This document shows, in pieces, positions 17,319 to 34,715 of a stretch of 64,000 nucleotides of DNA. Position 1 is the first letter of the stretch; each line of letters begins with the position of its first letter. The translations under genes were made by a program, and so were the position numbers. The DNA is taken from contig CAYIOP010000001.1 in assembly GCA_964365185.1 (NCBI GenBank), positions 34,675-98,674 of the forward strand, read 5' to 3'. The stretch is from an uncultured Candidatus Saccharibacteria bacterium. Lineage in GTDB: Bacteria > Patescibacteriota > Minisyncoccia > UBA6257 > 2-01-FULL-56-20. Under the pieces are notes generated by a model. The model had not been told where the DNA came from. It ran no database searches and was given only the letters and a program-made list of their open reading frames with translations.

Positions 17319-17336
17319 AAATATTTTTATTTTAAG

Positions 17337-17692: not shown

Positions 17693-17833
17693 ATGAAACA
17701 GAAATATTATTGTCCTAGCTGTGAAGAGATTTTCCATGCGGATCGAGTGAATGTCAATGAGCGTCACCATTGTGGGACCATTAGTATTATTGACTGGACT
17801 TATAGGAGAGAGGAAGAAACAAGAAGTGATTAA
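17693..17833 (+). CDS. small ORF (46 aa) with C4-like zinc-binding spacing
   Basis: MKQKYYCPSCEEIFHADRVNVNERHHCGTISIID..., with CxxC ... HHC. Below the ORF-track length cutoff and has no clear RBS. Confidence 0.2.
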   Translation: MKQKYYCPSCEEIFHADRVNVNERHHCGTISIIDWTYRREEETRSD

Positions 17834-17991
17834 TTACTTTTCGGTTTGGCTACACTTTTCAATAATAATCGGCGCATGTGAGAGTTCGTGATTAGCCAGA
17901 TAACCTAAAGCAAAACTTAAGGAGGCCACCAAAAAAATAATGGCGCTAAAGACAACTTCCTTTCTGTGGTTTTGATACCAGTCCCCTACCG

Positions 17992-18021
17992 TTGACATCG
18001 CTATAGATTATATAATAGAAT
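17992..18021 (+). promoter_or_regulatory. putative sigma70-type promoter of rpmA (TTGACA-N18-TAGAAT)
   Basis: ttgaca at 17992-17997 and tagaat at 18016-18021, 33 nt upstream of the rpmA ATG. Confidence 0.3.
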
Positions 18022-18054
18022 AGTTAAAATTTTCAATAAAAAAATTAAGAAAAA

Positions 18055-18327
18055 ATGGCACATACACAATCGGGTGGATCAACAAAATTAGGGCGAGAGT
18101 CGCATTCAAAACGGCTGGGTATTAAGATTTTTGACGGGCAACCGATTAAGGTTGGCCAGATTGTGGCTAGGCAGAGAGGCACCAAGTATTTTCCCGGACG
18201 AAACGTGAAGATAGGCGGAGACGATACTCTCTTTGCCATACGAGATGGGATTGTTAAATTCTCCACTCGTTTTAAATCTAATTTTGCCGGTAAAAGACGG
18301 CGAATTACGGTTGTGAATGTAGTATAA
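18055..18327 (+). CDS. rpmA: 50S ribosomal protein L27
   Basis: [24 protein letters not shown]...[24 protein letters not shown] is the canonical L27 sequence. Confidence 0.85.
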
Positions 18328-18754
18328 CTTTTAAATTAACTTTTGTTCTGTTTTTTAAGTTAACTTCAATTAGATGTTCCCCTATTTCTTTTAAGGGGTG
18401 ATCAAGTTTAATTTCCACTCTTTCTTTGGTTATAAATTTATTGGAACGAAGCGCTTTTAAAATCATATCTTTGGTGACTGAACCAAAAGTTTTGCCGTTT
18501 TTGTCGGTTTTCATTTCAAAAATTAGGGATCTCTGTTGGATGAGTTCGGATATTTGAGTTAAGTGGCTTTCCAATTCCTTACTTTCTTTTTCTTTGGAAG
18601 ATTTGATTTGGGACAGCTTTTTTAAGGCCATGTGATTGGCGAGTTCAGCTAATTTTTTGGGAAAAAGAAAATTTTTAGCATAACCTGGCGAGACGTCTTT
18701 GATTTCGTATTTTTTTCCGATATTTTTTACGTCTTCAAGGAGGATGACTTTCAT
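18305..18754 (-). CDS. rplI: 50S ribosomal protein L9
   Basis: [36 protein letters not shown] is the L9 N-domain. Its 3' end overlaps rpmA convergently by 23 nt. Confidence 0.8.
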
Positions 18755-18759
18755 AATTT

Positions 18760-20007
18760 TTAATCGTCTAATTTAAAGAGAGTGTCGTTGTTTTTCTTGA
18801 TTTCAGATTTCAAAATCTCAATGGCCTTATCAAATTGAGGGTCTTTATCTTTATCGATGTCGTCATCGCTTAATTTGATTTCGTAGTCCGGAGTTAGGCC
18901 TTTGCCTTCGATGATTCCACCTTTAGGTAAAACCCAGTTGGCAACCGTGATTTTAATGGAAGAGCCGTCTTTTAGGGTTTCGATTTGTTGGACTGTGCCT
19001 TTGCCAAAAGTTGTTTCTCCTATAAGCTTGATTCCTCGGTGATCTCTTAGAGCTCCGGCTAAAATTTCCGAAGCCGAAGCCGAACCGCTATTAACCAAAA
19101 TGACTACCGGGAAATCTTTTAAAGAAGCGTTGCCGCTTGAGAACAATTTTTGCTCTTCTGATTTTTTAGAAACTTCTTTAACAACAAGGGTGCCGCGAGG
19201 CAAAAACCAGCCGGCAATATCAACTGCGACCTGGAGATAGCCGCCGGGATCGTTTCTTAAATCAAGTACTATGCCTTTGCTACCGTTGGATAAGACCTGA
19301 ACTATGGCTTTATAGAAAAGAAGATTGGCATTGGCGTTAAAACTATCGAGGCGGATGTAGGCGATATTTCCCTCTTTCATTTCAAATTCGAGAGTTGGGA
19401 TAACTATGTTTTCTCTGACAATCGCAAAATCGCGAGGTTTTTCCCAACCGTCGCGGAAAATAGTTAAAGTGACTTTCGATCCGATTTCTCCTCGGATAAA
19501 TCCGATGGCTTCTTCAACATTTAAATTTTCGGTTGAGGAAGTGTTGATGGCTAAAATTATATCTTTGGGTTTAAGGCCGGCTTTTTCAGCTGGGCTGCCT
19601 TTGAGTGGGGAGATAACCGTGAGGTGATCGTCTCGGGTGCCGATTTCCGCTCCAATACCGCCGAAATTTCCTTGAATATCCTCTTCAAATTTTTTTCCAT
19701 CTTCGGGATTAAAAAATTCCGTGTGAGGGTCGCCTAAAGAATGAACCAATCCTGCGATAGCGCCATAGACCCGTTTTTGATTGTCAATTTTTTCCGCATT
19801 TAGAAATTGCTCGTCGATAACGCTCCAGGCCTGCCAAAATGCGCTGAAGTCAACATCTTTTTGATTTTTTGATTCAGTACCGGAGAGGTTTTTGATAACG
19901 ATATTTTTGGGAATGTTGCGGCCGAAATCGATGCCCAAAGAAAAAACACTGGCTAAAAGCCCCAAAATCACGGCAATAAAAATGATTCTTCGGAAGTTAG
20001 TTTTCAC
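18760..20007 (-). CDS. ctpA: S41-family C-terminal processing peptidase with PDZ domain
   Basis: N-terminal TM segment, a PDZ-like region, then NSGSASASEILAGAL and ETTFGKGTVQ, the S41 catalytic Ser/Lys region. Confidence 0.8.
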   Translation of the reverse strand: MKTNFRRIIFIAVILGLLASVFSLGIDFGRNIPKNIVIKNLSGTESKNQKDVDFSAFWQAWSVIDEQFLNAEKIDNQKRVYGAIAGLVHSLGDPHTEFFNPEDGKKFEEDIQGNFGGIGAEIGTRDDHLTVISPLKGSPAEKAGLKPKDIILAINTSSTENLNVEEAIGFIRGEIGSKVTLTIFRDGWEKPRDFAIVRENIVIPTLEFEMKEGNIAYIRLDSFNANANLLFYKAIVQVLSNGSKGIVLDLRNDPGGYLQVAVDIAGWFLPRGTLVVKEVSKKSEEQKLFSSGNASLKDFPVVILVNSGSASASEILAGALRDHRGIKLIGETTFGKGTVQQIETLKDGSSIKITVANWVLPKGGIIEGKGLTPDYEIKLSDDDIDKDKDPQFDKAIEILKSEIKKNNDTLFKLDD

Positions 20008-20057
20008 TTGAATATATTTTATCGGATTTATCTTTTTTCCACAAGATAGTTTTGGGT

Positions 20058-20092
20058 TAAATAAAAGGCCGCTCTGAAGAATCAGAACGGCT
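20058..20092 (-). terminator. Rho-independent terminator candidate downstream of 20106..20696
   Basis: Hairpin ggccgctctga-aga-atcagaacggc. On the minus strand it is followed by CTTTTATTT. Confidence 0.4.
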
Positions 20093-20105
20093 TTGTTGTT
20101 TTTGA

Positions 20106-20696
20106 TTAAAACAAGGTGGGATAGTAGACAATTATGTATGATTTGAGAATTTCTCCAAGGAGTACAGCTATAATCGCAGTTGGTTGTGGATAGAAAACAC
20201 AGTGGCAGGTTCCGAATTTCGCGCCCAGGGGTATAAGTCCGAAGATTAGGAGTTTGAGGTGGCGTTTCGATTCATGAGCCAAAGGTTTTAAACCGCGACA
20301 ATCTTCGGCGGGTTTGTGGCTTAGAGTTTTAATCATGAAATTGGTGAATTTGATTATGATTCGTCCTAGCCACCTCCATCTTAATTTCTTGAGTTTTTCC
20401 TCATAACGGCGGCGTTTTTCTTTAAGTTGGGATTGCGCGGCTGATTTTAATAAGATTATTCGAAGGAGAAAAAGAGAACCCAAAAAATAAAGTATTAGAT
20501 AGATGACGATTGCGAGAAAAGTTAGTTTTTGGTGTTCGACTAGTCTTGGAGCTAGATACAAAATCACCACATCTACGGGAATAAGTCCGACGATAGCAAA
20601 TAGAATAATTCCATTTACAGCGATTTGAATTTGTCTTTGTTTCCACCATGATAACGACAGAATATTCACCAAAACCTCCTTGTTTTCGATTGACAA
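20106..20696 (-). CDS. hypothetical membrane protein
   Basis: 196 aa with several hydrophobic helices and a basic, coiled-coil-like KEKRRRYEEKLKKLRWRW segment. Confidence 0.35.
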   Translation of the reverse strand: MSIENKEVLVNILSLSWWKQRQIQIAVNGIILFAIVGLIPVDVVILYLAPRLVEHQKLTFLAIVIYLILYFLGSLFLLRIILLKSAAQSQLKEKRRRYEEKLKKLRWRWLGRIIIKFTNFMIKTLSHKPAEDCRGLKPLAHESKRHLKLLIFGLIPLGAKFGTCHCVFYPQPTAIIAVLLGEILKSYIIVYYPTLF

Positions 20697-20790
20697 TGAG
20701 CTTGAGTGATATCTAGGATACCGAATGGATTGGATAAGGTCAAATATGGCGAAATTTGAAAATGCTGGTTAAAAAAACTAGAATAGAGGG

Positions 20791-21087
20791 GTGGATCAGG
20801 ATTATTTTGAGGAATTGCGGAGGCGATCCAAGGAATCGCGGGTTTACAGCCGACATCAGCTTTTAGGGCTTGAGATAGCTAAGATTTTAGGAGATGAGAA
20901 GCATAAAGCGCTTTATATTAAACTCGCTAAAGAGAATAATCCCGAGATTTTACTTACTTTGGCTAAACGAATTTCGGAAAACGTGAAGGTTAAAAATAAA
21001 GGCGCGTATTTTATGAAGATTTTGAGCGAGGAGAAAAAAGTGCAAAAAAATCGAAATGGACGAAAAGATTCTAGTGATTCAAAATAA
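20791..21087 (+). CDS. hypothetical small basic protein
   Basis: 98-aa ORF whose 3' end overlaps the def start. No motif recognised. Confidence 0.25.
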   Translation: MDQDYFEELRRRSKESRVYSRHQLLGLEIAKILGDEKHKALYIKLAKENNPEILLTLAKRISENVKVKNKGAYFMKILSEEKKVQKNRNGRKDSSDSK

Positions 21088-21610
21088 AAAAGAAGAAAAA
21101 ATCTTGAGGCAAAGAACTCAAGATTTTAAGTTTTTGAAGAAAGGCTTGGTGATTGGCCGAGATGAATTTTCGTTTAGAGAACTTGATGATTTAATTCGAA
21201 AGATGCGGAGAATAATGAAGGAGGCCAGCGGCGTGGGGCTAAGCGCTAATCAGGTCGGTCTTCCCTATCGGATGTTTGTGGCGGAGGTTCTGGATGCTGA
21301 CGGTAATTTGAAGTTTTATGCGATTTTTAATCCTCGGCTTGAATTTTCTGGTAAGGAGAAGGCAAAGATGGAAGAGGGGTGTTTGAGCGTGCCTGGGAAA
21401 TACGGTTTTGTGGAGCGAGCTACCAGCGCGAAATTAACTGGATTAGATAAGCGTGGCCGAGCCCTTAGAATCAAGGCCTGGGGATTTTTGGCGCACGTAT
21501 TTCAGCATGAGGTGGACCATTTAGATGGTAAGCTTTTTATTGATAGAGCCAAAGAAATTTATGATATACCAAAAGTTGACGAACGTTTAGCTGCTAAATA
21601 TCGAAAATGA
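21056..21610 (+). CDS. def: Peptide deformylase
   Basis: The three PDF motifs are present: GVGLSANQVG, EGCLSVPG and HEVDHLDG. Confidence 0.85.
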   Translation: MDEKILVIQNKKEEKILRQRTQDFKFLKKGLVIGRDEFSFRELDDLIRKMRRIMKEASGVGLSANQVGLPYRMFVAEVLDADGNLKFYAIFNPRLEFSGKEKAKMEEGCLSVPGKYGFVERATSAKLTGLDKRGRALRIKAWGFLAHVFQHEVDHLDGKLFIDRAKEIYDIPKVDERLAAKYRK

Positions 21611-22470
21611 AATTTGTTTTTTTTGGAACGCCGGAATTTGCTGAAATTGTTTTAGATAAATTAATTCAAGGCGGTTATATTCCGTCGGCGGTAATTTGTA
21701 ATCCAGACAGGCCAGTTGGCAGAAAAAAGATTATCACTCCCCCGCCGGTGAAGACGCGAATTATGAATTATGAATTAGGAATTAAGAATCAAATTAAGAT
21801 TTTGCAACCAGAGAAATTAAATCCTTCATCATTCTCGATTCATGATTCTTTATTCGATTTATTTGTCGTGGCGGCTTACGCTAAGATTATTCCAGCGGAG
21901 ATCTTAAAAATTCCGCGTCTTGGGGTAATCGGGGTTCATCCATCACTCCTGCCTAAGCATCGAGGGCCATCGCCGATTCAGTCAGTGATTTTAAACGGCG
22001 ATAAGGAGACAGGCGCTGCTCTGTATTTGATGGACGCTTTGGTGGATCATGGGCCGATTTTAGAAAGTCGAAAGTTGAAAATAGAAAGTAGAATAAATTA
22101 TTTAGAACTCGAGAGGCAGCTGGCGGAGTTAGGAGGAGACTTATTGGTTGAAGTGTTGCCAAAATTTGTTGAGGGAGAAATCAAGCCCGAGATTCAAAAT
22201 GAGGATGAAGCAACTTTCACCAAGAAATTTACCACTCAAGACGCGTTTGTGAATTACAGTGATTTACTCGAGGCGGAGAATGGTGATTTCAATTTAGCTT
22301 TAATGATTGACCGAAAAATTCGGGCTTTTGTGGCGGAGCCGGGTGCCTGGACGATTCGAGATGGGAAGCGAGTTAAACTTTTGGAGGCGGAAATTGTGGG
22401 AGTGAATTTACGGCTTAAGAAAATTCAAGTTGAGGGAGAGAGGCCGAAGATGGTAGAAAATAGTAAATAG
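21607..22470 (+). CDS. fmt: Methionyl-tRNA formyltransferase
   Basis: MKFVFFGTPEFA and GVHPSLLPKHRGPSPIQ (formyltransferase SLLP motif). It follows def with a 4-nt overlap. Confidence 0.85.
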   Translation: MKFVFFGTPEFAEIVLDKLIQGGYIPSAVICNPDRPVGRKKIITPPPVKTRIMNYELGIKNQIKILQPEKLNPSSFSIHDSLFDLFVVAAYAKIIPAEILKIPRLGVIGVHPSLLPKHRGPSPIQSVILNGDKETGAALYLMDALVDHGPILESRKLKIESRINYLELERQLAELGGDLLVEVLPKFVEGEIKPEIQNEDEATFTKKFTTQDAFVNYSDLLEAENGDFNLALMIDRKIRAFVAEPGAWTIRDGKRVKLLEAEIVGVNLRLKKIQVEGERPKMVENSK

Positions 22471-22500
22471 AAAGCAGAAAATCGGACTGCAGAATGTTTT

Positions 22501-24207
22501 CTATATAATTTCTTTTAAGTAGCATTCCTTGCATAGAATTTCTTTGTAGTCCTCTAGGGTATAGCTGCTTTGGAATTTACTTTGGCATTTAAAACAGGTT
22601 CGTTCCACTAAAGTTAAATCTTTCACCCAGTCCTGGAATTTTTTTTCAATTCGGCAAAAGGGACATTCGCGCGGCAGAGGTAGATTCATTTGTTTTAGGA
22701 AGTCGAGTTCGGACTGAATGATTTTGAAGCCGCGGTCGCATTTAGCGCAACCAATAATTTCATTTAAAATATCGCGTGGAGCGTCTTTGATATGATCCGG
22801 AAGATGTTCCGATTTAATTGAGATTTGATGATTTTTGGGTTCGCTTTCTTTCCATGCGTAGCCGGCATTTAGTGTTTGTTCTTTTGTAAGCGGAAAAAAA
22901 TTATTGGCCATAGTTTCATTATAGGCCCAAGGACTCATCTCGATTGGGAAAAACTCGCCGTATTTATAAATTTGTCCGCGGCTGTTTTTATAAGGCATCT
23001 CATTCATATGATTGATAATTTTTTCACGGAGTTGCCAATATTCCTTTTCCGGATATTTTTTGTTGAAAATCACAAATTTTCCTTTCTTGAGCGATGAACA
23101 GGCAAAGTAGTTAGCGCCGCCAAGCACGGTATTGCAGTATTCGGCGTCGATTAAATTAATTCCACTTTGAGTGGAAAACTTTACTCGATGAGCTCCTTCT
23201 CCGGTTACGCTTACTTCGTAGCAGAGTTCCATATTGTTGCCCCAACTGGTGATATCATAGCAATTCTTAATGGGTGCAACGGCGAGCATAAATAAATATT
23301 TAGAATCAATCGCTCCGGCGACCTCGTAGCACTCCTTACAATTTTTGGACTCAAAAACATAATTGCCGGTACAGTTCGTCACAAATTCCGAACAATATGG
23401 CAGAGGCGGATGTTTTTGCCAATTTTCTTCACTCAATTTTTGAGCCAGTTTATAGTTTTGATACGAGCCCAAGTCGAATTCTTTTAATTTTTTAGCATAT
23501 TCCTCTGGGGTATATTTCTGATTGAAAAATACATACTTTTGATTTCTAAGATTGGTCGAGCCAAAACAATTTTGGCAATTTGCGGAGTCCCGAAGAAAAT
23601 GGCAGTTAAGCGATTCAGTAACCTGCTTACGCAGGCCAACGCACCGGTTATTTTTGAAAGAATGTTCGCAGTCGTAGCAGAGTTCGGAGTGACTAATAAG
23701 TGATGAATCGAGCGTATTTTTGGAGTTAGTGACGTAGAAGCCATAGCTGCAATCTTCACTGAAGTCGGCATGAAACAGGAGGTAGCAATTTTTGAGATTG
23801 CCAACATGATTGTTGTATTCGGAGTTGATCATCGTGGGCAAGGCATTCGAGAGTCCGATGGTCGGTACTTCCAGCCAAAATTTCTTTAATTGCTCAAAGA
23901 AGGGTTGATTAAAGTCATAGTCGCGGCTATATTCATAAGGGTCCCAGTCATCAGACCACCAACATTTAGGGCAGTAGATTTTATAAAGGGACTCTGGAGA
24001 AAACATGGAAAGAGAGTTTTTGCCGCAAAGATCGCATTTCCGCTTGTAAATTTTTAAAAGATTAAAAAAAGCCAGGCGCCTTTGAAAGCGGCACTTGGGA
24101 CAAAAAGTCGGTGGCGGGACTTCAATTTTTTGGTAGAAATTAAAGTCCTCGGGTTCGATGGTGAATTCAGATTTGCAATCTTGACAAATCTTTGTTTCTG
24201 AATTCAT
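22501..24207 (-). CDS. Cys-rich zinc-ribbon family protein (tandem array member 1)
   Basis: MNSETKICQDCKSEFTIEPEDFNFYQKIEVPPPTFCPKCRFQRR at the N-terminus. Internal NCQNCFGSTNLRNQKYVFFNQKYTPEEY, and a C-terminal CPFCR...YKEILCKECYLKEII zinc-ribbon pair. Confidence 0.6.
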   Translation of the reverse strand: MNSETKICQDCKSEFTIEPEDFNFYQKIEVPPPTFCPKCRFQRRLAFFNLLKIYKRKCDLCGKNSLSMFSPESLYKIYCPKCWWSDDWDPYEYSRDYDFNQPFFEQLKKFWLEVPTIGLSNALPTMINSEYNNHVGNLKNCYLLFHADFSEDCSYGFYVTNSKNTLDSSLISHSELCYDCEHSFKNNRCVGLRKQVTESLNCHFLRDSANCQNCFGSTNLRNQKYVFFNQKYTPEEYAKKLKEFDLGSYQNYKLAQKLSEENWQKHPPLPYCSEFVTNCTGNYVFESKNCKECYEVAGAIDSKYLFMLAVAPIKNCYDITSWGNNMELCYEVSVTGEGAHRVKFSTQSGINLIDAEYCNTVLGGANYFACSSLKKGKFVIFNKKYPEKEYWQLREKIINHMNEMPYKNSRGQIYKYGEFFPIEMSPWAYNETMANNFFPLTKEQTLNAGYAWKESEPKNHQISIKSEHLPDHIKDAPRDILNEIIGCAKCDRGFKIIQSELDFLKQMNLPLPRECPFCRIEKKFQDWVKDLTLVERTCFKCQSKFQSSYTLEDYKEILCKECYLKEII

Positions 24208-24316
24208 TTTATTTTTTCCGAAATAAATTTGAGAGGTGATTTTTAAGTAGGGTCCAAAAAGCCCCTACGATAAGCTTAATAGTTCTAATGCGTATTTTGA
24301 TACTTGGATTCATGGA

Positions 24317-26107
24317 TTATTGAATTTCACCTTGATAGCATTCGGAACAGTAAATTATTTCAGGATCATTGTTTGAGTAGCTGGTCATAAATTTATTTTG
24401 ACACTTTGTTTCGCCATGAAGATGGGCGGTTCGATTTTCGTATATTATCTCTCCAGTTGAGTTTTCTGAAGTTCTTCCGCCACACATACAAAATTTTTCA
24501 GATAGATTATAGCGTTCTCGGCCGTTATTTCTGATATGGCGTCGGCATTCGGGGCAAAGTCGCGGAAGGGCGACGTTAATCATTCGGTAGAACTCCAGTT
24601 CCTTGGGAACGATTTTGAAAGCTCTTTTGCATTGGTGGGCACAATCTCCTCTATGAGAGCAGTTGATAATTTTTTCTAATATTTTGTCGTCCGTGTTTTT
24701 TATGTTATCCGGCAGATCTTCGGGATTTATGGTGTTCGCGTAGGTTTTTAGTTCCGCGTCTCGCCACCAAAGTTTTTGTTTTTGAGCTTTTTCTTTGGTG
24801 ATCGGGAAATAGCGCTGAGCTAAGGAGTTATTGTAGGCGCAGGTTGAAAATTCCGGCGGGAAGAATTCGCCGTACTTGTAAATGTGGCCAAGTTCGTTGA
24901 TGTAGGGTGTTTGCTTCATTTGTTCTATAATCTTCGGCACTATTTTTTCATATTCTTCCTTCGTGTATTGTTTATTTAGAATGCAGTACTTTTTTTTTCT
25001 TAACCCAACGCAGCCGAAAAGATGTTCGCATGATTGGCAAGTATCGCAGTATTGTAAATCTAAGCTTTCTCTGGCGCCGTTGGTGAATCTGATGTTTTGG
25101 GAATTAAACGCGCTGCTGGCGTAGATAAGCTCGCATTTTTCGCCTCCAGCGAAGACGTCGTAGCTGTCTTTGATTCTTCGGCCGCAGATTAGGAGATATT
25201 TGCTGTTTTCCGCGCCGTCTCTAACTTCGAAGCTATGCTGACAGTTTTTGGCGTTTTCGATGTCGTTGCCGGTGCAACCAACGGTGTTTTTTTCCGCCAT
25301 ATACTTTCTTGGGATTTTCGATTTAAGTTTTTCGAATTCTTTTTTGGCATCTTTTAAAGTTTTATGACTACCGAGATTTAGCTCCGACATTTTTTTTTCA
25401 TATTCTTTTTTGGAGTAGGGTTGATTGAAAATATGATATTGTTTGTTTCGTAAACCGACGCAGCCGAAACAGTTGGAGCAATTTCGGCAGTCGTAGAGAA
25501 ATTTTGAATCTAAACATTCATTGCATTGTTCAGAAAATAAAAGATTGAAACAGCGAGTACAAGAACAGGATTCATACATGTTTTCGCAAAAAATTAATAT
25601 TGAGACGTCAATGCATTTGCGGCTTACGGCAGGCGTGTCTGAATACATGCAGTCTTCAGAGAGATAGGCTCCGGAGACGAGGTAACAATTTTTTGAGTTT
25701 GAGGCCCAGGTGCAGTAATCGCAGTTTATTGAGTTAATTGAACGTACATTCGCTAAAGGAACAGAGTTTAAGAGTTTTAGAAATTGCTCGAAAAAGGGCT
25801 TTGAAAAATCGTAGTCGAGGCCATATTCGGTCGGATCCCAGGCATCGGACCACCAATAGTCGGAATCGTATATTTTGAGTCCTCTTTCCGAAGGATATCT
25901 AGAAATGAGTTCTTCGCTGTGGCCGGGTGCCTGGCATTTGACGCGGAAGAGCGCACCTTCATTCGACCAAATGAGTTTATGCATCATTCGGCACTTAGGA
26001 CAAAAAGTCGGCGGTGGGACTTTAATTTTTTCGTAGAAAGCGAAGTCATCGGGTTCGATGGTGAAAGTTGATTTGCAGTTTTGGCAAATTCGCGAATCTT
26101 GAGTCAT
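24317..26107 (-). CDS. Cys-rich zinc-ribbon family protein (tandem array member 2)
   Basis: MTQDSRICQNCKSTFTIEPDDFAFYEKIKVPPPTFCPKCR at the N-terminus. Internal CFGCVGLRNKQYHIFNQPYSKKEY and CEHLFGCVGLRKKKYCILNKQYTKEEY, and a C-terminal CPECR...IIYCSECYQGEIQ. Confidence 0.6.
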   Translation of the reverse strand: MTQDSRICQNCKSTFTIEPDDFAFYEKIKVPPPTFCPKCRMMHKLIWSNEGALFRVKCQAPGHSEELISRYPSERGLKIYDSDYWWSDAWDPTEYGLDYDFSKPFFEQFLKLLNSVPLANVRSINSINCDYCTWASNSKNCYLVSGAYLSEDCMYSDTPAVSRKCIDVSILIFCENMYESCSCTRCFNLLFSEQCNECLDSKFLYDCRNCSNCFGCVGLRNKQYHIFNQPYSKKEYEKKMSELNLGSHKTLKDAKKEFEKLKSKIPRKYMAEKNTVGCTGNDIENAKNCQHSFEVRDGAENSKYLLICGRRIKDSYDVFAGGEKCELIYASSAFNSQNIRFTNGARESLDLQYCDTCQSCEHLFGCVGLRKKKYCILNKQYTKEEYEKIVPKIIEQMKQTPYINELGHIYKYGEFFPPEFSTCAYNNSLAQRYFPITKEKAQKQKLWWRDAELKTYANTINPEDLPDNIKNTDDKILEKIINCSHRGDCAHQCKRAFKIVPKELEFYRMINVALPRLCPECRRHIRNNGRERYNLSEKFCMCGGRTSENSTGEIIYENRTAHLHGETKCQNKFMTSYSNNDPEIIYCSECYQGEIQ

Positions 26108-26130
26108 AGATGATTTTTGTTTTTTTGATA

Positions 26131-26162
26131 CTATTCTCTAATTCGCGCGAATTAGAGAATAG
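26131..26162. repeat. 32-nt perfect palindrome between array members 2 and 3
   Basis: ctattctctaattcgc|gcgaattagagaatag, read directly. It is preceded on the + strand by a T-run. Confidence 0.5.
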
Positions 26163-26181
26163 TTGGATAGAAGCGCCTTAA

Positions 26182-27834
26182 TTATGATATTTCGGCTTGA
26201 TAACATTCAACGCAGGAAATTTTTTGAAAAGTAAGTTTGGGTGAATAGTAATGTTCAATCTCTTTTTGGCAATAGACACATTTTCCTTTTTGCGGCTCCA
26301 TCATTAGAGTTAAGGGGTGAAAGCGGTTTAGGGTTCGCCAGTCAAAATGTTGTCTTGGTAGAGGGATTTCATGCTCGCGGTAAAACTGAAGTTCTGACGG
26401 GGCAATATTATAGCTTAATTTGGTTTCTGGACAGATGATGCGTTGTTTAGTAATGTCGTCTTTAACATTATCTATTTTATCCGGTAGGTCTTCCGACCTA
26501 ACTCCAACGTATTCCGGATTTTTAGGTTCTTCCCATTTAGCTCCGAATTTTAAAGCGCCCTCTTTTGTTTCGGGAAACATAATTTGAGCGAGAGAATAGT
26601 TGTATCCAGCATAGGCGGCGCTAAGTGGAAAAAATTTTCCCCACTCCCCTCTTTGCTTCATATCTGTTTCTATCTTTTTCTTTAGCGTTTCGTATTCTTG
26701 TTGGCTATATTGTTTGTTTAAAATGCAATATTTTTTCTTTCTTAATCCCACGCAGCCAAAACAATATTCGCACTCTTCGCAGTTATCCAGATAAGCGCTG
26801 TAGCGACAATAGCCGGTATAGAGATTACAGAAATTTTCATATCCCCATTGGTCCAGGGAACTCCGGGCGCATTTTTCCGATGGGCAGCCCACCGCATCAA
26901 TGAGGTCTTTACCGTCTATTCCCCTTAAAGAATAGCGGCAATTTTCCGATCTTTCCAAAAAATAACAGCTATGGCAGTTTTTGTTTTCCAATAAAAAGTT
27001 GCCGCTGGAATTTGAAATTTGGACATTAAAATGCGCGCGGTGAATCGTGTCTTTTTGAAGATGGCTCCAAAATTCTTTTTTTAGTTTTTCGACAGCGGAA
27101 TAAGAATTGAGTTCAAAACTTTTTATTTTTTTAAAATATTCTTCTTTTGAATAAGGTTGGTTTAAAATATAATATTGTTTATTTCTCAAATTCCAGGACA
27201 TAAAACAGTTTTGACAGTTGCGGCAGTCATAGAGAAAAGCGCCTTCTATACAGTCACGTGAGTTGAAGCAGTGTCGCAGTTTGAATCCCTTAAAACAATA
27301 GAGGCAGTCATAACATTTTTCTAGTTCAAAACAATAAGTTATATCCAGAGAATTTTTCGAGGCGAAAGCCCTGTAGCCATAACTGATATCCTCGATTTTC
27401 CAAGCTGACCTGGTGAGGTAGCAATTTTTTGATTCCCAAACATCGTCGGTCCAGTCACAATTGGTGTTTCTAAGACCGGTTTGATGAGGATGAGGAACTT
27501 TGGCTTGAAGTTCCATTAATTGTTCAATAAAAGGCCGGGAGGCGTCATAATCGCGGCCGTAGGCTAAAGAATCCCAGGCGTCTGAGACAAATTCTTCCCG
27601 TTCGTAGATTGGAAAAGGCACGCTCTCGGGTAAGACGGTAATGAGCCGTTTACCGCTTAGGGCGGAATTGGTGATTCGAAAGCGGCCAAAAATCCAAAAG
27701 GACAAAAGATATTTCCATCGACAGAGTGGGCATTGGTCTGGCGTCGGCAAATCGAATCTACTATAGAATTCTTTGTCGATATCTTCTATTTGAAATTCTT
27801 TTTGGCAGTTTCGGCACGTTTTGTTTTCAGTCAT
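26182..27834 (-). CDS. Cys-rich zinc-ribbon family protein (tandem array member 3)
   Basis: Start placed at M13 (MTENKTCRNCQKEFQIEDIDKEFYSRFDLPTPDQCPLCR) to avoid a 34-nt overlap with the upstream gene. Internal CQNCFMSWNLRNKQYYILNQPYSKEEY and CEYCFGCVGLRKKKYCILNKQYSQQEY, and a C-terminal ISCVECYQAEIS. Confidence 0.55.
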   Translation of the reverse strand: MTENKTCRNCQKEFQIEDIDKEFYSRFDLPTPDQCPLCRWKYLLSFWIFGRFRITNSALSGKRLITVLPESVPFPIYEREEFVSDAWDSLAYGRDYDASRPFIEQLMELQAKVPHPHQTGLRNTNCDWTDDVWESKNCYLTRSAWKIEDISYGYRAFASKNSLDITYCFELEKCYDCLYCFKGFKLRHCFNSRDCIEGAFLYDCRNCQNCFMSWNLRNKQYYILNQPYSKEEYFKKIKSFELNSYSAVEKLKKEFWSHLQKDTIHRAHFNVQISNSSGNFLLENKNCHSCYFLERSENCRYSLRGIDGKDLIDAVGCPSEKCARSSLDQWGYENFCNLYTGYCRYSAYLDNCEECEYCFGCVGLRKKKYCILNKQYSQQEYETLKKKIETDMKQRGEWGKFFPLSAAYAGYNYSLAQIMFPETKEGALKFGAKWEEPKNPEYVGVRSEDLPDKIDNVKDDITKQRIICPETKLSYNIAPSELQFYREHEIPLPRQHFDWRTLNRFHPLTLMMEPQKGKCVYCQKEIEHYYSPKLTFQKISCVECYQAEIS

Positions 27835-27836
27835 AT

Positions 27837-29504
27837 TTAGATAACTTTTTGTTGGTAGCAACTTTCGCAAAAAATAATTTCGGGTTGGTCAGGAGCGAAA
27901 TTTGTTTTAATTGGTTTTTGACAGTTCGCGCAATTGCGATCAAATATTTTAATTGGTCCTCTTCTATTTATCCTAGCTTGGTGGCGACAGTAAAAGCAAT
28001 GCCGCGGGAGAGGTATGGACATGAGTTTATAAAACTGGAATTCAGCTTGAATGATTTTGTAGTTTCGTTTACAAGAAACGCAGGCGAGAATTTCGTCTAT
28101 AATTTTTTCTGAAATTTCGCTAATATCATCTGGAATCTTTTCTGATTTCAGAGTTTCTTTTCCGGTTGTTATTTGAAGATTATCTTCCCAGCGATAACCT
28201 TGGGCAAGGGCTTCGTCTTTAGTGAGCGGCAAGTTGTCTTGCGCAATAGTTTCGTTATAGGCGAAGAGATTAAGAGCTGGTGGGAAGAAGAGTCCATAAT
28301 CCCCCGCCTGAATAAGTTCCTGCTTGATTGTGTTCGTAATTTGCCGATATTCTTTTTCGTCGTAGCGTTTATTTAGAATTGAAAATTTGGAGTTTTTTAT
28401 GCCATCGCAACCGAAACATTCTTGGCTATTACGCGTGGCGAAGCAATAAGCGACATCTTGAGCGTTTTCCACCCACCAAGAGCTGATGACTCTGGCGCTA
28501 TAACCAGTGGCAACTGCTTCCAACAACAATTCGGAGTTGCGGCCATGGCCGATAATGTCGTAGGTGTCTTTTGCTAATTTAACCGAGAAAGAGTAGTTGA
28601 CGTTTTCACAAAAGGCTAATTCAAATGAGGAGCGACAATTTTTTGATTCAAAAATGTAGTCGCCGGTTACAGCCACACTTTTTAGATTGTTGTTTTCGCG
28701 GCGTGGGAATTTAAGAGAAAATTCATCAAAGTTTTTCGCGAATTCTTTTATGGCGCTATAGCTGCCGATAATTGGTTCGACTTTCTTTTTCCACTCTTCT
28801 TTAGAGAGCGGTTCATTTAGAAAATGGTATTTTTTATGGCGAAGATTAACACAACCGAAGCAATTTTGAAGACCGACGCAATTTAAGAGAAATGAGGAAT
28901 CGAGGCATTCGGAAACATTTTGAGACCAAGAGACGCCTTTGCTGTTGTGAATATTTACTCCTTCGTAAATGTTTTCTGATTTATCAATATTGTAGCCGTC
29001 AAAGACATTGCGGCACTGGAGCATTCCGCGAGAATAGGCGCAGTTTTCATTATTGGGTCCGGAGTTGGCGACGAGATAGCAGTCCTTGTTGCCGCCAGCA
29101 AAGTTTTCATACGGACTGTTTACGCTTTTCATTACGTCGCTGCGGTAAAGTGCACATTTAGGAACTGAATGGGTTAATTCTTTGAATTGATCGAAAAAAG
29201 GCCGATTTGAATTATAAACTCGGCCGTAAGAAAAAGAATCCCATTTATCGCTATGCCAGCAATCGGGACAATATACCGTGAAAGTTGAGGAAGGGCTATA
29301 CATTGAAATAATCGGCTCATGGCAGAGATCACAGGAACGATTATATAAAACAAATTCGTTTCGAAATTGGGCCTTTCTTTTAAAGCGGCATTCAGGACAT
29401 AAAATAGGCGCCGGAACGCCCATTTTTTTATAGAAAGTGAAGTCGTCGGGTTCGATGGTGAACCCATTTTTGCAATTCTGACAAATTCTTGAATCTTGGA
29501 TCAT
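27837..29504 (-). CDS. Cys-rich zinc-ribbon family protein (tandem array member 4)
   Basis: MIQDSRICQNCKNGFTIEPDDFTFYKKMGVPAPILCPECRFKRK at the N-terminus. Internal NCFGCVNLRHKKYHFLNEPLSKEEW, and a C-terminal CFYCRHQ...IIFCESCYQQKVI. Confidence 0.6.
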   Translation of the reverse strand: MIQDSRICQNCKNGFTIEPDDFTFYKKMGVPAPILCPECRFKRKAQFRNEFVLYNRSCDLCHEPIISMYSPSSTFTVYCPDCWHSDKWDSFSYGRVYNSNRPFFDQFKELTHSVPKCALYRSDVMKSVNSPYENFAGGNKDCYLVANSGPNNENCAYSRGMLQCRNVFDGYNIDKSENIYEGVNIHNSKGVSWSQNVSECLDSSFLLNCVGLQNCFGCVNLRHKKYHFLNEPLSKEEWKKKVEPIIGSYSAIKEFAKNFDEFSLKFPRRENNNLKSVAVTGDYIFESKNCRSSFELAFCENVNYSFSVKLAKDTYDIIGHGRNSELLLEAVATGYSARVISSWWVENAQDVAYCFATRNSQECFGCDGIKNSKFSILNKRYDEKEYRQITNTIKQELIQAGDYGLFFPPALNLFAYNETIAQDNLPLTKDEALAQGYRWEDNLQITTGKETLKSEKIPDDISEISEKIIDEILACVSCKRNYKIIQAEFQFYKLMSIPLPRHCFYCRHQARINRRGPIKIFDRNCANCQKPIKTNFAPDQPEIIFCESCYQQKVI

Positions 29505-29520
29505 GAATCGTGAAGCGAGA

Positions 29521-29790
29521 TTAAAGGATTTGATAGAGGGTTTCTATGTTATCGGTTCGTGCATCGATGTAAAACTTTCCAAATTCCTGTCTTAGAACCA
29601 GTAAGGAATATCTTTGTTCGTTCCACTTTGGATCTTCGAGCGCGAAATCCAAAAGTTCAATCCCCCGTTCAAGGGCCTCCTTAAATAATTTATCGTTTTC
29701 TGTTTGCCAAGTTTTGGCTCGCATAATTTCAGAACCAATCATAAGGAGTTGCTGGCTCTTGGAAAAAATATTCCATCTCTTTTGGGTCAT
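29521..29790 (-). CDS. hypothetical small protein
   Basis: 89-aa ORF tightly packed between the Cys-rich array and the DUF87 ATPase. No motif recognised. Confidence 0.3.
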   Translation of the reverse strand: MTQKRWNIFSKSQQLLMIGSEIMRAKTWQTENDKLFKEALERGIELLDFALEDPKWNEQRYSLLVLRQEFGKFYIDARTDNIETLYQIL

Positions 29791-30093
29791 TTAAAAAAGC
29801 AAATTTTCAACTACTTTTTTAACCTTTTCTTTGATAGCGGAGTCCTGAATTTCCATTGAGCGATTACCAATAGTCGGGCGAATATTAATCATTGAAACGT
29901 AATCAATGCGCTTTTCGAGTGGATAGATGTTTGAGCCCCATAGATTTTTGAAATTTGAGCCATCAGCTTGAAGTTCCTCGGCGCAGTCAATATGGAGTTC
30001 GCAGTTCATACTTAAAATTCTTTTTTCAATATCAACCACCACTTTTATAAATGAGATGTCTTTTGGTAAAATGGTTTTTTCGCGGACAATCAT
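29791..30093 (-). CDS. hypothetical small protein (start trimmed to M28 to avoid overlap with ATPase)
   Basis: The ORF track gives 29791..30174. The first 27 codons overlap the ATPase C-terminus, and the internal Met at 30093 abuts the ATPase stop at 30098. Confidence 0.3.
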   Translation of the reverse strand: MIVREKTILPKDISFIKVVVDIEKRILSMNCELHIDCAEELQADGSNFKNLWGSNIYPLEKRIDYVSMINIRPTIGNRSMEIQDSAIKEKVKKVVENLLF

Positions 30094-30097
30094 GATT

Positions 30098-31564
30098 TTA
30101 AATAAGTGGTTCAGGTTCTTTGGTGGCTGGAGGATTTGGTTCTTCGGAGTCAGCGGTTCGGGGCTTACCTTCAATAATGGCTTTTTCCTGAGCGCTTCTA
30201 AAAATCGTGGCTTCTTCTTCAGTAATTAGTTTTTTAGCGGCGCCAGCTGGGATAGTGTATTTAGTCCTCGATAATTCCGTAATTTTTTCTTTAAATGTTT
30301 CATGAGTGGGAGGCAAAACCTTTAACGTTTCGGCCGAGAAAGGATCATAGGTTTCACCGTCAATGGTCATTTTGATATAGAATTCCTGCATACCAAGATT
30401 AATCATATCTTTGACTTTAAAAACCGGATCCATTTCGGGTTCGAGTTTGACTGCGTCTTCGCCGCCGACGCGGAAAATAATGATAGTGCCGGTATTGCCT
30501 AAAACAGCTGCCTGAACTCGGGGAATTAACTGAGCGGCGTATTGATGGGCGACAGTAAGGCATAAACCATATTTGCGGGCTTCAGAGAGAATGTTTTCAA
30601 AGGTTTCAGTGACTAAGTTATGAAACTCGTCAACGTAAAGATAGAAATCCGTTCGGGATTCTTCGGGCATGCCAGCTCGGGCCATTCCAGCTTGCTTGAT
30701 TTTAGTAATAAACATCGCACCCAAAAAACTTGAGTTTTCTTCGCCTAGTCGTCCTTTACAGAGATTAATAAAGAGAATTTTCTTTTTTCTCATTACTTCT
30801 TCTATATCAATTTTATTTTCTTTTTGACCAAAGATGTTTCGTAGTAATGGGTCGGAGAGAAATTGGCCAAGTTTATTTACTAGTGGAATAATAGCGTCGG
30901 TGTCGAATTTTTCCGACCAATCGGCGAATTCAATGGCCCAAAAACGTTTAACCATATCGTCTTCAATATATTCCACCACTTTCTGACGATAGTTGCGGTC
31001 GGTAAGCATTGAAATCATGCCGCGCATGGTGGCGTGAGGATAGTCGAGAAGAGCCAGACAAGTGAATCTGAAAACGTGTTCTAATCGCGGAGTCCAGTTG
31101 GCGCCAAATTGCTTTTCCATGACTTCAATTAAACCTTGAGTGAGTTGATGTTTGAAGGCCGGATCAACATTGGCTAAGGGATTAAATGAAACTGGATTAT
31201 CCAAATCGGTTGGGTCGATAATAACCACATCTTCAATTCTTTCCTTTGGGATGAATTTCAGGATTTCTTCGATTACATCTCCGTGCGGGTCCATAAGACA
31301 GAGGCCGTGGCCATACGCAACATCTTGTCGAATTAATAATTCCAAAAGTTTGGATTTGCCGACACCGCTTTTGCCGATAATATACATATGTCGGCGACGG
31401 TCTTTTCTTTTGATGCCAAAAATAAATTCCTTTTTTTCAAGCGCGGCCACATAGTTAGTGCGACCGATGAAGGAAATTTCCTTCGGGTCAATACGACCGT
31501 AGATTGGAAGCTCCGGTGGAGGCGGAGCGTATTTGATAATTTGAATTTTTCCGGCTTTACTCAT
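30098..31564 (-). CDS. DUF87-type P-loop NTPase (HerA/TraD/VirD4-like), paralog 2
   Basis: [40 protein letters not shown] and AHQ. The N-terminal 250 aa are about 45% identical to the ATPase at 1102..2922. It has no zinc-ribbon tail. Confidence 0.7.
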   Translation of the reverse strand: MSKAGKIQIIKYAPPPPELPIYGRIDPKEISFIGRTNYVAALEKKEFIFGIKRKDRRRHMYIIGKSGVGKSKLLELLIRQDVAYGHGLCLMDPHGDVIEEILKFIPKERIEDVVIIDPTDLDNPVSFNPLANVDPAFKHQLTQGLIEVMEKQFGANWTPRLEHVFRFTCLALLDYPHATMRGMISMLTDRNYRQKVVEYIEDDMVKRFWAIEFADWSEKFDTDAIIPLVNKLGQFLSDPLLRNIFGQKENKIDIEEVMRKKKILFINLCKGRLGEENSSFLGAMFITKIKQAGMARAGMPEESRTDFYLYVDEFHNLVTETFENILSEARKYGLCLTVAHQYAAQLIPRVQAAVLGNTGTIIIFRVGGEDAVKLEPEMDPVFKVKDMINLGMQEFYIKMTIDGETYDPFSAETLKVLPPTHETFKEKITELSRTKYTIPAGAAKKLITEEEATIFRSAQEKAIIEGKPRTADSEEPNPPATKEPEPLI

Positions 31565-31566
31565 AT

Positions 31567-32154
31567 TTATAAGTCGGCAGGGTTTATTAATTCTAGCTCT
31601 TTTAAAATAACTTCAAAATTATGAATGGTTTTTTTAACATCACTTGAGTCGATTTCAAAATTGGGATCGTCGACTATTCTATTGTGATATTCGTGGGCTT
31701 TCATGCCGGCGCGCCTGATCCAACCCAGTTCCTCGGACATAATTTGATTGATTTTATCGCCGGTGTTCTCGCCGCTAAAGCCAACGTTAGTTAGGGCTTG
31801 GCCCACAAATTTATCAGCTTCGATGATGGCCAATTTCATCTGATCTAGATTGCCTGAAAAAGCTTTTTCTCGAATTGAGCACCAGAAATTTAGCGCGGCT
31901 TTTTTTTCAGGAGTAAGTGGAGCAGGGGGTCGTTTTTTGATATTGATATGGGGCCTGAACATTCTGGCTTTATTTAAGAGAAATAAAAAGGTGACAAAGA
32001 GGCCAATGTCAACAGCAATCCAAAGAATTTTGAAATCAAAAGCTGGTTTTCTTGGCCAAGTAGAGAGGTTTAGATAAATGGGCCAAGCTAAGAGAGAAAG
32101 GCCGATAATAAAAACTAGACCGTGCAGAAATTTTAAAAGCTTTTCGAAATTCAT
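31567..32154 (-). CDS. hypothetical membrane protein (2 TM) adjacent to ATPase
   Basis: 195 aa with two N-terminal hydrophobic helices, then a soluble domain. Its stop is 3 nt before the ATPase start. Confidence 0.4.
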   Translation of the reverse strand: MNFEKLLKFLHGLVFIIGLSLLAWPIYLNLSTWPRKPAFDFKILWIAVDIGLFVTFLFLLNKARMFRPHINIKKRPPAPLTPEKKAALNFWCSIREKAFSGNLDQMKLAIIEADKFVGQALTNVGFSGENTGDKINQIMSEELGWIRRAGMKAHEYHNRIVDDPNFEIDSSDVKKTIHNFEVILKELELINPADL

Positions 32155-32166
32155 AAATAATTTGAA

Positions 32167-33552
32167 TTATAAGAATTTTTCGATATTTTCTTCTTCGCCG
32201 AAAATAGCGAGTCCTGCTGGCGGACCGGCTTTTCGGCTCTCTACTCGTTTAATATGTGGCGCTGTGATGACAAAAGATTGAGGCGGATGAAAGAGGGTGG
32301 CTAGCGCCTCGATATTTAAAGTGATTTTCTTGGAGGCAAAATTAAAGTTTAAGGGATGGGCGGATAATAGTTTTGCCCAAAAAGTTTTTTGAGGTTGTTT
32401 CCAGTGTCTGTAATTATAGAGCAGGCGTTGTTTACGATAGCGATTTCTGACTTTATGAAAAAGAAACGGCCAGTTCCAGAAAGTGAGCCGAGTGGAAACC
32501 TTGGCATTTTGACGGAAAGAATTGAGGTCTAAGCTGCTGTATTGATTAAAAGAACCAACAATGCCGCGGCGCGCAAAACTGTCATAAAACATTAGCTTGG
32601 GTGAGAAGTAGATGAATCGAATGGTAGTTTTGAAAGCGGACTTTGAAGTATATTGCTCAACAGCTTTTAGAATGTCGGTTTCGCCGGGCGATCGGGTAAG
32701 TGATTTGGCGAATAATTCTAGTTCGTTGGATTTAGGCGTTTCAGTGGTGAAAGTCGGCAAGGGTCCGCCGCCGGGAAATTCCGCTTTATTGGCTGATTTT
32801 AAATTGGCAATGGCATCGCGTTTGTTTTGGGACTCTTTTAATTCAGAGATTAAATGATTCCAATGGTCTTTCCAGTCTGGCGTGGCGGCTTCAATTAGAA
32901 ATTGAATACCGACCATTTCTTGTTTTTTAACTTTTCCAAAGACCTCTAAAAAGGCGGAAATTGGGTCGTATTCTTTTTCTTCTTCCATGGATTCAAAATG
33001 CGGGTAGGTTTTAATTGGGTAGGCCTCTTCCCTGTTTAGAATCATTTCACTACCCCAAAGCTCATAGTTTTTGTCTAGCATATCTTCAATATTTTCAGGA
33101 AATCGGTTTAAATAATCATCAACTTCGGCTAGTTCAAGGTCTGGGTAGTAGGCGTAAAAAGCGGCTTCAACTAAACTTCGATATTTATAATAGAGCCGGA
33201 TATAAAGATGAATTTCACCGCCAAAACTGGCCATTTCCAGCGAAAACCAGCGAGTGACTTCGCCGTCTCGATAATACTCCTGCAGGTCATAAGGAGCGTT
33301 TCTTAGTCCGTGAAGGGCGGCTAAAATTTGTTCCATAGCTTGCGGATTTTTTTTGGTTTCTCGAGGAATCACGATTTCTAGAAGTATCCATTTGAGGTAT
33401 TTTTTGTAACTTTCATGTCGCCAAAAAAGTAGCGTCTTTTCGGCGATGTTAAATAAAATAACCGCTAACACAAATAAACCGACCAGCGTGGCAATTTCTT
33501 GAAACAACGGCGAAGAAAAATTTGTAAGTTCAGCCGTTAAGTCCGCTCCCAT
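32167..33552 (-). CDS. hypothetical membrane-anchored protein (461 aa)
   Basis: Two N-terminal TM helices, then a large soluble region rich in aromatic residues. No recognised catalytic motif. Co-directional with the ATPase module. Confidence 0.35.
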   Translation of the reverse strand: MGADLTAELTNFSSPLFQEIATLVGLFVLAVILFNIAEKTLLFWRHESYKKYLKWILLEIVIPRETKKNPQAMEQILAALHGLRNAPYDLQEYYRDGEVTRWFSLEMASFGGEIHLYIRLYYKYRSLVEAAFYAYYPDLELAEVDDYLNRFPENIEDMLDKNYELWGSEMILNREEAYPIKTYPHFESMEEEKEYDPISAFLEVFGKVKKQEMVGIQFLIEAATPDWKDHWNHLISELKESQNKRDAIANLKSANKAEFPGGGPLPTFTTETPKSNELELFAKSLTRSPGETDILKAVEQYTSKSAFKTTIRFIYFSPKLMFYDSFARRGIVGSFNQYSSLDLNSFRQNAKVSTRLTFWNWPFLFHKVRNRYRKQRLLYNYRHWKQPQKTFWAKLLSAHPLNFNFASKKITLNIEALATLFHPPQSFVITAPHIKRVESRKAGPPAGLAIFGEEENIEKFL

Positions 33553-33599
33553 ATATTTAATTATAAACTGACTACTGTTTTGACGCTAGTATTTCGATA

Positions 33600-34628: not shown

Positions 34629-34715
34629 AGTTTAGAATTCATTATATCATATAGAATTTATTAGTCAACTGTGGACAAGTCCCTCGCTTTTTAGTCAAAG
34701 AATGAGGGATGAAGA

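Follow-up and report, generated by a model that had tools for sequence, protein, structure and literature searches.

A multi-copy family of large cysteine-rich proteins encoded beside VirD4-like ATPases in Parcubacteria-group Patescibacteria

The DNA described here is a 64,000-nucleotide stretch, referred to below as the window, of contig CAYIOP010000001.1 from an uncultured member of the Patescibacteria, and the subject of this study is a family of large Cys-rich, putative multi-zinc-finger proteins encoded within it. Four of the genes are co-directional on the minus strand, as established from the listing of open reading frames (ORFs) and their translation, and form an array with gaps of 2-110 nt between genes, the start of copy C lying 2 nt from the stop of copy D. 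A preliminary description had counted six copies, five of them full length (550-600 residues) and one a 3' fragment. All of these are present in the ORF listing, and a tblastn search with all copies against the window returned exactly six:

22501..24207, minus strand: copy A, an ORF of 568 residues and the last gene of the four-gene array.
24317..26107, minus strand: copy B, an ORF of 596 residues and the copy used for the structure model.
26182..27834, minus strand: copy C, the most diverged of the set, 550 residues when counted from the ATG.
27837..29504, minus strand: copy D, an ORF of 555 residues and the first gene of the array.
13175..14977, plus strand: copy E, 600 residues, solitary, between an M23 peptidase/119-residue ORF and MurC.
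3..353, plus strand, frame 3: copy F, a C-terminal fragment of 116 residues truncated by the window edge.

An alternative TTG start for copy C at 27870 (562 residues) would overlap the upstream copy D, and the public gene call uses the 550-residue ATG form. Copy F aligns with the C-terminal finger pair of the other copies and is 50% identical to the C-terminus of copy E, and copy B has an exact database match, from a Hainich groundwater contig. Pairwise BLAST identity among the paralogs is 30-41% (37-40% for copy A against copies B, D, and E); the E-values, 1e-67 to 1e-155, lie far beyond chance. The initial picture of a strongly diverged centre between conserved ends needs correcting, as mean identity per region is 32-50% and divergence is spread nearly evenly along the whole protein. 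The N-terminal and C-terminal motifs quoted at the outset are real, as is the repeated Cys unit, FGC.xL[RK]xK.Y.I.N..Y..EEY, of which every protein has exactly two instances. Cys makes up 5.2-6.7% of residues in the window copies, and the family proteins are near neutral, with isoelectric points (pI) of 5.8-8.1. No signal peptide or transmembrane (TM) segment was detected in the family copies, the maximum Kyte-Doolittle 19-mer score being <=1.15, which bears out the earlier remark that none has a signal peptide.

Scans of Pfam, NCBIfam, and PADLOC, which covered all window copies and 68 homologs, returned no PADLOC match to the family and no Pfam or NCBIfam match above cut-off, the treble-clef finger families PF13451, PF23477, and TIGR04272 matching below threshold at both termini only. 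For PF13451 (zf_Tbcl), the best score was 19.6 bits, at residues 6-46 of copy D, against a cut-off of 24 bits (E<=0.01 in 11 of the 68 members); for PF23477 (zf_Tbcl_2), family copies scored 14.9-21.7 bits against 27 bits (E<=0.01 in 2 of the 68), and for TIGR04272, they scored 11.8-20.2 bits against 36 bits. The sub-threshold PF13451 and PF23477 matches in copy D fall at residues 6-46 and 520-553, and it is fingers 2 and 4 of the family, as numbered below, that match PF23477 weakly. The central 400 residues matched nothing in Pfam or NCBIfam, and no PDB homolog was found either by a profile search of sequence or by the predicted fold of copy B. The proteins thus still elude assignment to a named domain family, as the preliminary description had held, and no confident match to a housekeeping iron-sulfur (Fe-S) enzyme, which that description had said would overturn its reading, emerged from Pfam, NCBIfam, or the PDB.

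Structure prediction for family members had been called for, and copy B was modelled with AlphaFold2 from a 68-sequence alignment (pLDDT, the predicted local confidence score, 86.4; pTM, its counterpart for overall topology, 0.87). The model runs from N-terminal fingers through a helix into very short strands spaced by 12 residues (residues 120-230), followed by helices, a second beta region (272-376), another helix, a loop-rich conserved segment, and the C-terminal fingers. In HHalign profile-profile comparisons, solenoid 1 aligned with solenoid 2 (probability 99.9%, E 9e-38) and the N-terminal finger pair with the C-terminal pair (probability 99.6%, E 2e-23), cross-control comparisons giving <2% probability, and in a family-wide autocorrelation hydrophobicity repeated every 12 residues and Cys recurred at lags of 3, 9, and 12. 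The predicted plan is therefore internally duplicated, in the order zinc-finger pair, beta-solenoid, beta-solenoid, zinc-finger pair, and the modelled solenoid coils are ~12 residues long and bear Cys ladders. Together, the AlphaFold2 model, the 12-residue period, and the absence of a PDB match point to a beta-solenoid class of fold without a solved relative, and the combination of 12-residue coils, Cys ladders, and the CxxCxxCxxC cap described next in a signal-less protein is of structural interest in its own right.

Conservation of the Cys was scored over 167 full-length members, in copy B numbering. Finger 1 (C8, C11, C36, C39) is conserved in 98% of members, and finger 2 is present in ~44%, being missing from copies B and C and taking the form CxxC-x17-CxxC (C58, C61, C79, C82) in copies A, D, and E. 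Solenoid 1 bears the CxxCxxCxxC cap (C207, C210, C213, C216), found in 83-97% of members; solenoid 2 has C366 and C375 as conserved Cys, and solenoid Cys are variably lost among paralogs. Finger 3 consists of C483 (100%), C493, C518, and C521, and finger 4 of C540, C569, C587, and C590, plus H562/H564 or a second CxxC according to the paralog, so that it reads CxxC-x17-CxxC in copies A and D and C-x-C...H-x-H...C-x17-CxxC in copies B, E, and F; copy C is without several of the C-terminal Cys. The proteins end 4-6 residues past the last Cys of this conserved finger, where the last blocks of the model have a pLDDT of 87-91. The fingers are predicted to bind metal, and the characterization of the family as large, Cys-rich, and multi-zinc-finger is supported in this sense. 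An autonomous metal or redox role (Fe-S, zinc handling, or a thiol buffer), for which the proximity to ATPases described below would be inherited synteny, could draw on the Cys content of 5-7%, the conserved solenoid 1 cap, and weak matches including BsaP. We nonetheless find such a role very unlikely, given that no Fe-S or oxidoreductase family was matched in Pfam, NCBIfam, or the PDB and that the solenoid Cys are variably lost; on the same two grounds, an Fe-S enzyme was rejected as a candidate.

A word-indexed search retrieved >7,000 homologs, all named "hypothetical protein" and none with a precomputed Pfam domain, from Liptonbacteria, Jorgensenbacteria, Nomurabacteria, Niyogibacteria, Pacebacteria, and "Patescibacteria group" bins, and an exhaustive profile search of 1.84 billion cluster representatives, the clusters being defined at 50% identity, retrieved 5,261 with E<=1e-3 and 2,268 with E<=1e-30. 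The family occurs in Parcubacteria-group Patescibacteria, with homolog lengths held tightly at 520-620 residues and no domain fusions or swaps. Members at loci L038, L052, and L060 of our survey are on contigs titled as Gammaproteobacteria, Bacteroidales, and Burkholderiales metagenome-assembled genomes; these look like mis-binned Patescibacteria contigs and not like genuine members from beyond the clade, and L060 bears the full ATPase/family cluster. Many of the TPA records have Saccharibacteria as their label. None of 50,697 phage records and 72,556 plasmids gave a match, and IMG/VR held a single family fragment; a mobile-element origin was rejected on these results.

The survey of related genomes that had been suggested was carried out on contigs from one genome per species, with copies counted within +-10 kb. 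Across about 80 loci, 34 had one copy, 18 had two, 13 three, 10 four, 3 five, and 3 six. Copy number therefore does vary, from 1 to 6 per locus, but the arrays are stable and a VirD4-like ATPase is their recurrent neighbour, and the idea that the size of the family is unusual and reflects a genome-specific expansion is not supported, as arrays of several copies are usual throughout the clade. The closest relative of each window copy is a protein from another genome and not a sister copy (55-74% versus 30-41% identity). Copy A has orthologs at 71% (L021) and 56% (L079), copy B at 59% in Liptonbacteria, copy C at 74% (L053) and 63% (L073), copy D at 57% and 55%, and copy E at 55% in L059, in the same M23...MurC context. 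The nearest relative was likewise in another genome for 129 of 133 proteins, and the 157 same-locus pairs in 80 other loci are 30-53% identical (median, 40%), none of them exceeding 60%. Synonymous divergence (dS) would be saturated at ortholog identities of 55-74%, and conservation relative to flanking housekeeping genes served as the gauge of selection: between the window and L021, the copy A ortholog is 71% identical, compared with 60% for fmt, 69% for def, and 60% for MurC. Judged in this way, the arrays are old, stable, and, it would appear, under purifying selection, which argues against a recent diversifying expansion.

These findings bear directly on the diversifying selection first proposed for the family and on the explanation attached to it, an arms-race repertoire of effectors, toxins, or surface-interaction proteins, expanded in this genome and delivered to host cells. 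Such a repertoire would fit the multiple copies, the lack of a Sec signal, the position beside VirD4-like coupling ATPases, which are known for substrate recruitment, and the possibility that zinc-finger proteins could refold in the host cytoplasm. It is difficult to reconcile with paralogs that are ancient and individually conserved, with a ceiling of 53% among same-array pairs, with orthologs that equal fmt, def, and MurC in conservation when the same two genomes are compared, with uniform lengths, no fusions or swaps, and divergence even along the protein, and with the failure to find a toxin domain, an immunity gene, a PADLOC match, or any presence in phages or plasmids. We consider it highly improbable. 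What survives of the effector idea is a weak form, by way of the operonic link to coupling ATPases, which the preliminary description had not noticed.

The minus-strand array is the distal part of a longer cluster in the order sig, DUF8128, 195-residue protein, short ATPase, DUF5674, 89-residue ORF, and copies D, C, B, and A, with no gap of >110 nt between the sig gene and copy A when the 89-residue ORF is included. These neighbours, and those beside copy F, are as follows:

33600..34628, minus strand: the sig gene, encoding a sigma-70 region 4 plus HARE-HTH (helix-turn-helix) protein of 342 residues, pI 9.8, with PF04545 and PF05066; it heads the conserved cluster.
32167..33552, minus strand: DUF8128 protein, 461 residues, with one N-terminal TM helix and a VirB4-like fold.
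31567..32154, minus strand: 195-residue protein with two TM helices at its N-terminus; in many loci, its gene is found in synteny between those of DUF8128 and the ATPase.
30098..31564, minus strand: short VirD4/TrwB-like ATPase, 488 residues, soluble (PF10412, 44 bits; PF02534, 30.5 bits).
29791..30093, minus strand: DUF5674 protein, 100 residues (PF18924, 89.5 bits).
29521..29790, minus strand: helical ORF of 89 residues that abuts DUF5674 and lies 16 nt upstream of copy D.
1102..2922, plus strand: long VirD4/TrwB-like ATPase, 606 residues, with a C-terminal CxxC-x17-CxxC finger and without TM segments (PF10412, 54 bits).
440..946, minus strand: multi-TM protein of 168 residues, between copy F and the long ATPase.
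34641..34668, minus strand: best sigma-70-like promoter match in the region, 11 of 12 positions, with an extended -10, immediately upstream of sig.

Both ATPases exceed the PF10412 cut-off of 20.5 bits and have the GxxGxGKS and DE residues, the Walker motifs of the short ATPase being intact (invariant G64..GK70S and D312-E313). Neither has an N-terminal TM domain, as the domain match begins at residue 28 or 54 and no 19-mer scores >1.3. The finger of the long ATPase passes PF23477 (45.6 bits) and TIGR04272 (45.4 bits) and is conserved in that ATPase subtype, and the DUF8128 model, built with 44 homologs, has a pLDDT of 81.5. The position of the best promoter-like site, upstream of the first gene of the cluster, is suggestive, the site being a consensus match only in a region where promoter-like sites in total, and the counts of the promoter/terminator scan, are not above the shuffled-sequence expectation.

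DUF5674 is an occasional passenger in the same clusters at six other loci, accompanied by a homolog of the 89-residue ORF in L102 and L137 and without it in L030, L043, L072, and L110; the stop codon of one member of the pair adjoins the ATG of the other, and the two could be a small two-gene passenger module. The 168-residue multi-TM gene is on the strand opposite to copy F and the long ATPase, with homologs equivalently placed in L079, L088, and L093. Elsewhere in the window, three GH130 (mannoside phosphorylase-type) paralogs, a 737-residue GT1-domain protein, and a GDE_C/GH100-like protein are encoded at 44849..51816 on the minus strand, another case of multiple paralogs in a small genome. 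Almost all 2-kb bins of 1..64000 have a positive GC skew, the cumulative value of which rises monotonically to 4.6, and the skew persists despite the minus-strand gene stretches at 22-37 kb and 44-57 kb.

The composition of the cluster raises two explanations that depend on its ATPases and its first gene. One is nucleic-acid handling, in which the finger pairs would bind DNA or RNA and the family members would be relaxosome-like or pilot factors for a DNA-translocating motor resembling type IV coupling proteins (T4CPs), acting with the sigma-70 region 4/HARE-HTH protein, for instance in DNA uptake or export in nucleotide-auxotrophic Patescibacteria. The three or four CxxC treble-clef/zinc-ribbon fingers per protein, the relationship of T4CPs to the FtsK/HerA DNA translocases, weak CedD and TraD matches, and the basic HTH protein (pI 9.8) at the head of the operon are all in keeping with this. 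The near-neutral pI of the family is not, and we found no nuclease, HUH, or Rep motif and no above-threshold Pfam nucleic-acid-binding domain, so we rate this explanation as unlikely. An HUH nuclease was also rejected as a candidate; the H-x-H at 562/564 is swapped for CxxC in paralogs A, C, and D and looks like a metal ligand. The other explanation is anti-phage defence, with the paralogs as sensors coupled to a HerA/FtsK-like ATPase. Here, weak PADLOC matches of the ATPases to mad8 and HerA and of the sig protein to MzaA region 4 would be the supporting evidence, but they are limited to generic P-loop and sigma-70 region 4 segments, the family itself has no PADLOC match, its orthologs are stable and conserved across the clade, and its flanks are housekeeping genes rather than a defence island. 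A defence function is accordingly extremely unlikely.

The linkage between the family and the ATPases was examined in both directions. In the forward test, ORFs were clustered without bias in 81 loci fetched by the family, and the top neighbour was the VirD4-like ATPase, with 42 genes in 30 of the 81 loci; the next neighbours (DnaJ, DnaK, and a permease) were found in 12. The ATPase gene runs in the same direction as its closest family gene in 40 of the 42 cases, within 1 kb of it in 36, and within 300 bp in 22. In the reverse test, 80 metagenome loci were fetched by the ATPase profile, and among the 47 that were >=10 kb and therefore counted, the family was present in 28, within 1 kb of the ATPase in 24 of those. 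For close relatives of the ATPase, the family is nearly always adjacent. Two layouts recur: SecD, SecF, sig, DUF8128, the 2-TM protein, the ATPase, and the family array in one, and DnaK, long ATPase, family, family, short ATPase, and DnaJ, then CysRS and a permease, in the other (L004, L014, L034, L035, L043, L060, L069, L072, and L078). In the window itself, dnaK, an unknown gene of 342 residues, and dnaJ are contiguous at 52324..56371 on the minus strand, and a link of the ATPase/family cluster to proteostasis is possible. The ATPase/family unit thus stays together while its chromosomal address changes, which argues for a functional link rather than inherited synteny, and this recurrence in different contexts, after SecDF-sig-DUF8128 or in the dnaK-dnaJ interval, also tells against the autonomous metal or redox role considered above. 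The sig gene, for its part, remains with DUF8128 and the ATPase, in conserved order, in lineages without the Cys-rich family too.

Starting from the architecture, the size of the family, the age of the paralogs, and the operonic linkage, we tentatively favour the view that the family members are clients, as cargo or as adaptor/receptor subunits, of an ATPase module derived from a type IV secretion system (T4SS), a reading drawn from gene context only and one that we hold with slightly more doubt than belief. Under this proposal, the arrays would be co-transcribed with the soluble VirD4/TrwB-like (T4CP-like) ATPases, and DUF8128, with its VirB4 fold, and the small 2-TM protein would probably anchor the soluble ATPase to the membrane. 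The VirB4-fold membrane protein, the 2-TM protein, and the TM-less VirD4-like ATPase would then constitute a split T4SS-derived membrane motor, to which the family members would either be handed as cargo or be joined as adaptor/receptor subunits, with the ancient paralogs providing distinct, long-fixed specificities. The terminal finger pairs may act as a common docking module, since one of their finger types is also carried by the long ATPase. An interaction with the ATPases would be the first expectation of this model, and any translocation a further one. In its fullest form, in which the arrays encode, as a conserved set of metal-stapled beta-solenoid/zinc-finger proteins, clients of the orphan VirD4-like ATPases that the split motor exports or injects into the host, where they refold with zinc, we regard the proposal as quite unlikely; if true, however, it would amount to a previously unrecognised secretion or host-manipulation pathway central to Parcubacteria episymbiosis.

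Several observations weigh against the client proposal. Gene adjacency is the only functional evidence for the partnership with the ATPases, and 51 of the 81 family loci have no ATPase within 10 kb, a situation shared by copy E, while 34 of the 81 have a single family copy within 10 kb. Distant ATPases (44-54% identity) keep the sig gene, DUF8128, and the ATPase with no family nearby, and it follows from these loci that the motor does not need the family and that the sig-DUF8128-ATPase triad is the older core, to which the family is a Parcubacteria-type add-on. No VirB4 or T4SS channel gene was found in the window, and the metal binding predicted for the fingers rests on the Cys patterns together with the sub-threshold Pfam matches. 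Many T4SS substrates have a disordered, charged C-terminal tail. The C-terminus of the family is instead a folded finger, with no unstructured or charged C-terminal signal and no Pfam docking domain such as XVIPCD. Genomic association with a coupling protein, another mark of T4SS substrates, is observed for the family, in the 30 of 81 loci of the forward test and the 28 of 47 of the reverse test.

The same set of genes could also be read as encoding a structural heteropolymer, the paralogs being subunits of a beta-solenoid fibre or scaffold (in the manner of bactofilin, curli, or minor and major pilins) that the ATPase assembles or extrudes. Ancient paralog sets that are kept together typify hetero-oligomers, and the operon encodes membrane partners. 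The model is, however, compact (pTM 0.87), its solenoids being capped and either end of the protein being formed by finger domains, the copy number ranges from 1 to 6 per locus, and there is no evidence of polymerisation, and we consider this explanation hardly probable.

In a literature search, we found no curated family, structure, or paper describing these proteins; Meheust et al. 2019 noted only Parcubacteria-enriched hypothetical families. Zinc fingers, beta-solenoids, and T4CP-like ATPases are familiar as components, and what appears to be undescribed is the family as such, together with the duplication in its architecture and the systematic way in which it is coupled to orphan T4CP-like ATPases and to a DUF with a VirB4 fold. 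Among 2,918 Patescibacteria genomes, a 2025 survey counted 5,713 VirD4-like T4CPs, roughly two per genome, found just 148 of these close to virB4, and reported the t4cp gene to be non-essential in a "Ca." organism; it analysed virB4 neighbourhoods rather than t4cp ones, mentioned no Cys-rich family, and left the role of the T4CPs open (PMC12102498). The orphan ATPases now gain a testable set of partners in the HTH protein, the VirB4-fold DUF8128, the 2-TM protein, and the family described here. Should the partnership be real, it would pair a machine derived from a T4SS with a defined family of candidate clients, in organisms whose interaction with the host is the main question still to be solved. 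A large part of bacterial diversity belongs to the Patescibacteria, and their clade-specific proteins are mostly unannotated; among such blocks of proteins, the present family is one of the larger, with as many as six copies in ~20 kb of a sub-megabase genome.

Among known proteins, the closest parallels to the fingers are PF13451, PF23477, and TIGR04272, which share the spacings CxxC-x24-CxxC (fingers 1 and 3) and CxxC-x17-CxxC (fingers 2 and 4), although the family scores below all of their curated cut-offs; to our knowledge, the treble-clef Pfam families PF13451 and PF23477 are without an assigned function. The solenoids recall the antifreeze protein of Tenebrio molitor (PDB 1EZG), a secreted, disulfide-bonded, Cys-rich right-handed beta-helix, in their 12-residue coil period and regularly spaced Cys, with match scores that are not significant. 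Unlike that protein, the family has no TCT ice-binding face, is signal-less and flanked by zinc fingers, and is seven times larger. At the level of gene organization, type VII (ESX) loci (EccC, EccE, Esx, and PE/PPE) likewise combine a membrane accessory, a P-loop translocase, and a tandem array of signal-less paralogs, but there is no sequence homology, the proteins here are zinc-finger/solenoid proteins of ~580 residues rather than helical hairpins of ~100, and the ATPase is VirD4-like, not EccC-like. TrsD of the monoderm T4SS is reported to be remotely homologous to the N-terminal part of VirB4 and abundant in Patescibacteria (PMC12102498). Unlike TrsD, DUF8128 adjoins a VirD4-like ATPase and not virB4, and this comparison, made by description only, concerns a neighbour of the family. 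VirD4/TrwB/TraD modules and their substrates, such as the Xanthomonas X-Tfe with XVIPCD (PMC8740702) and the Dot/Icm effectors, offer the final point of reference. The ATPases here differ from theirs in being without an N-terminal TM domain and without virB4 or channel genes nearby, and the family differs from T4SS effectors in being ancient and uniformly conserved, in its fixed architecture, and in having neither a disordered C-terminal signal nor toxin/immunity pairing. As in those systems, however, a multi-copy family without a Sec signal is encoded beside ATPases that pass PF10412, and its shared terminal module could serve for docking.

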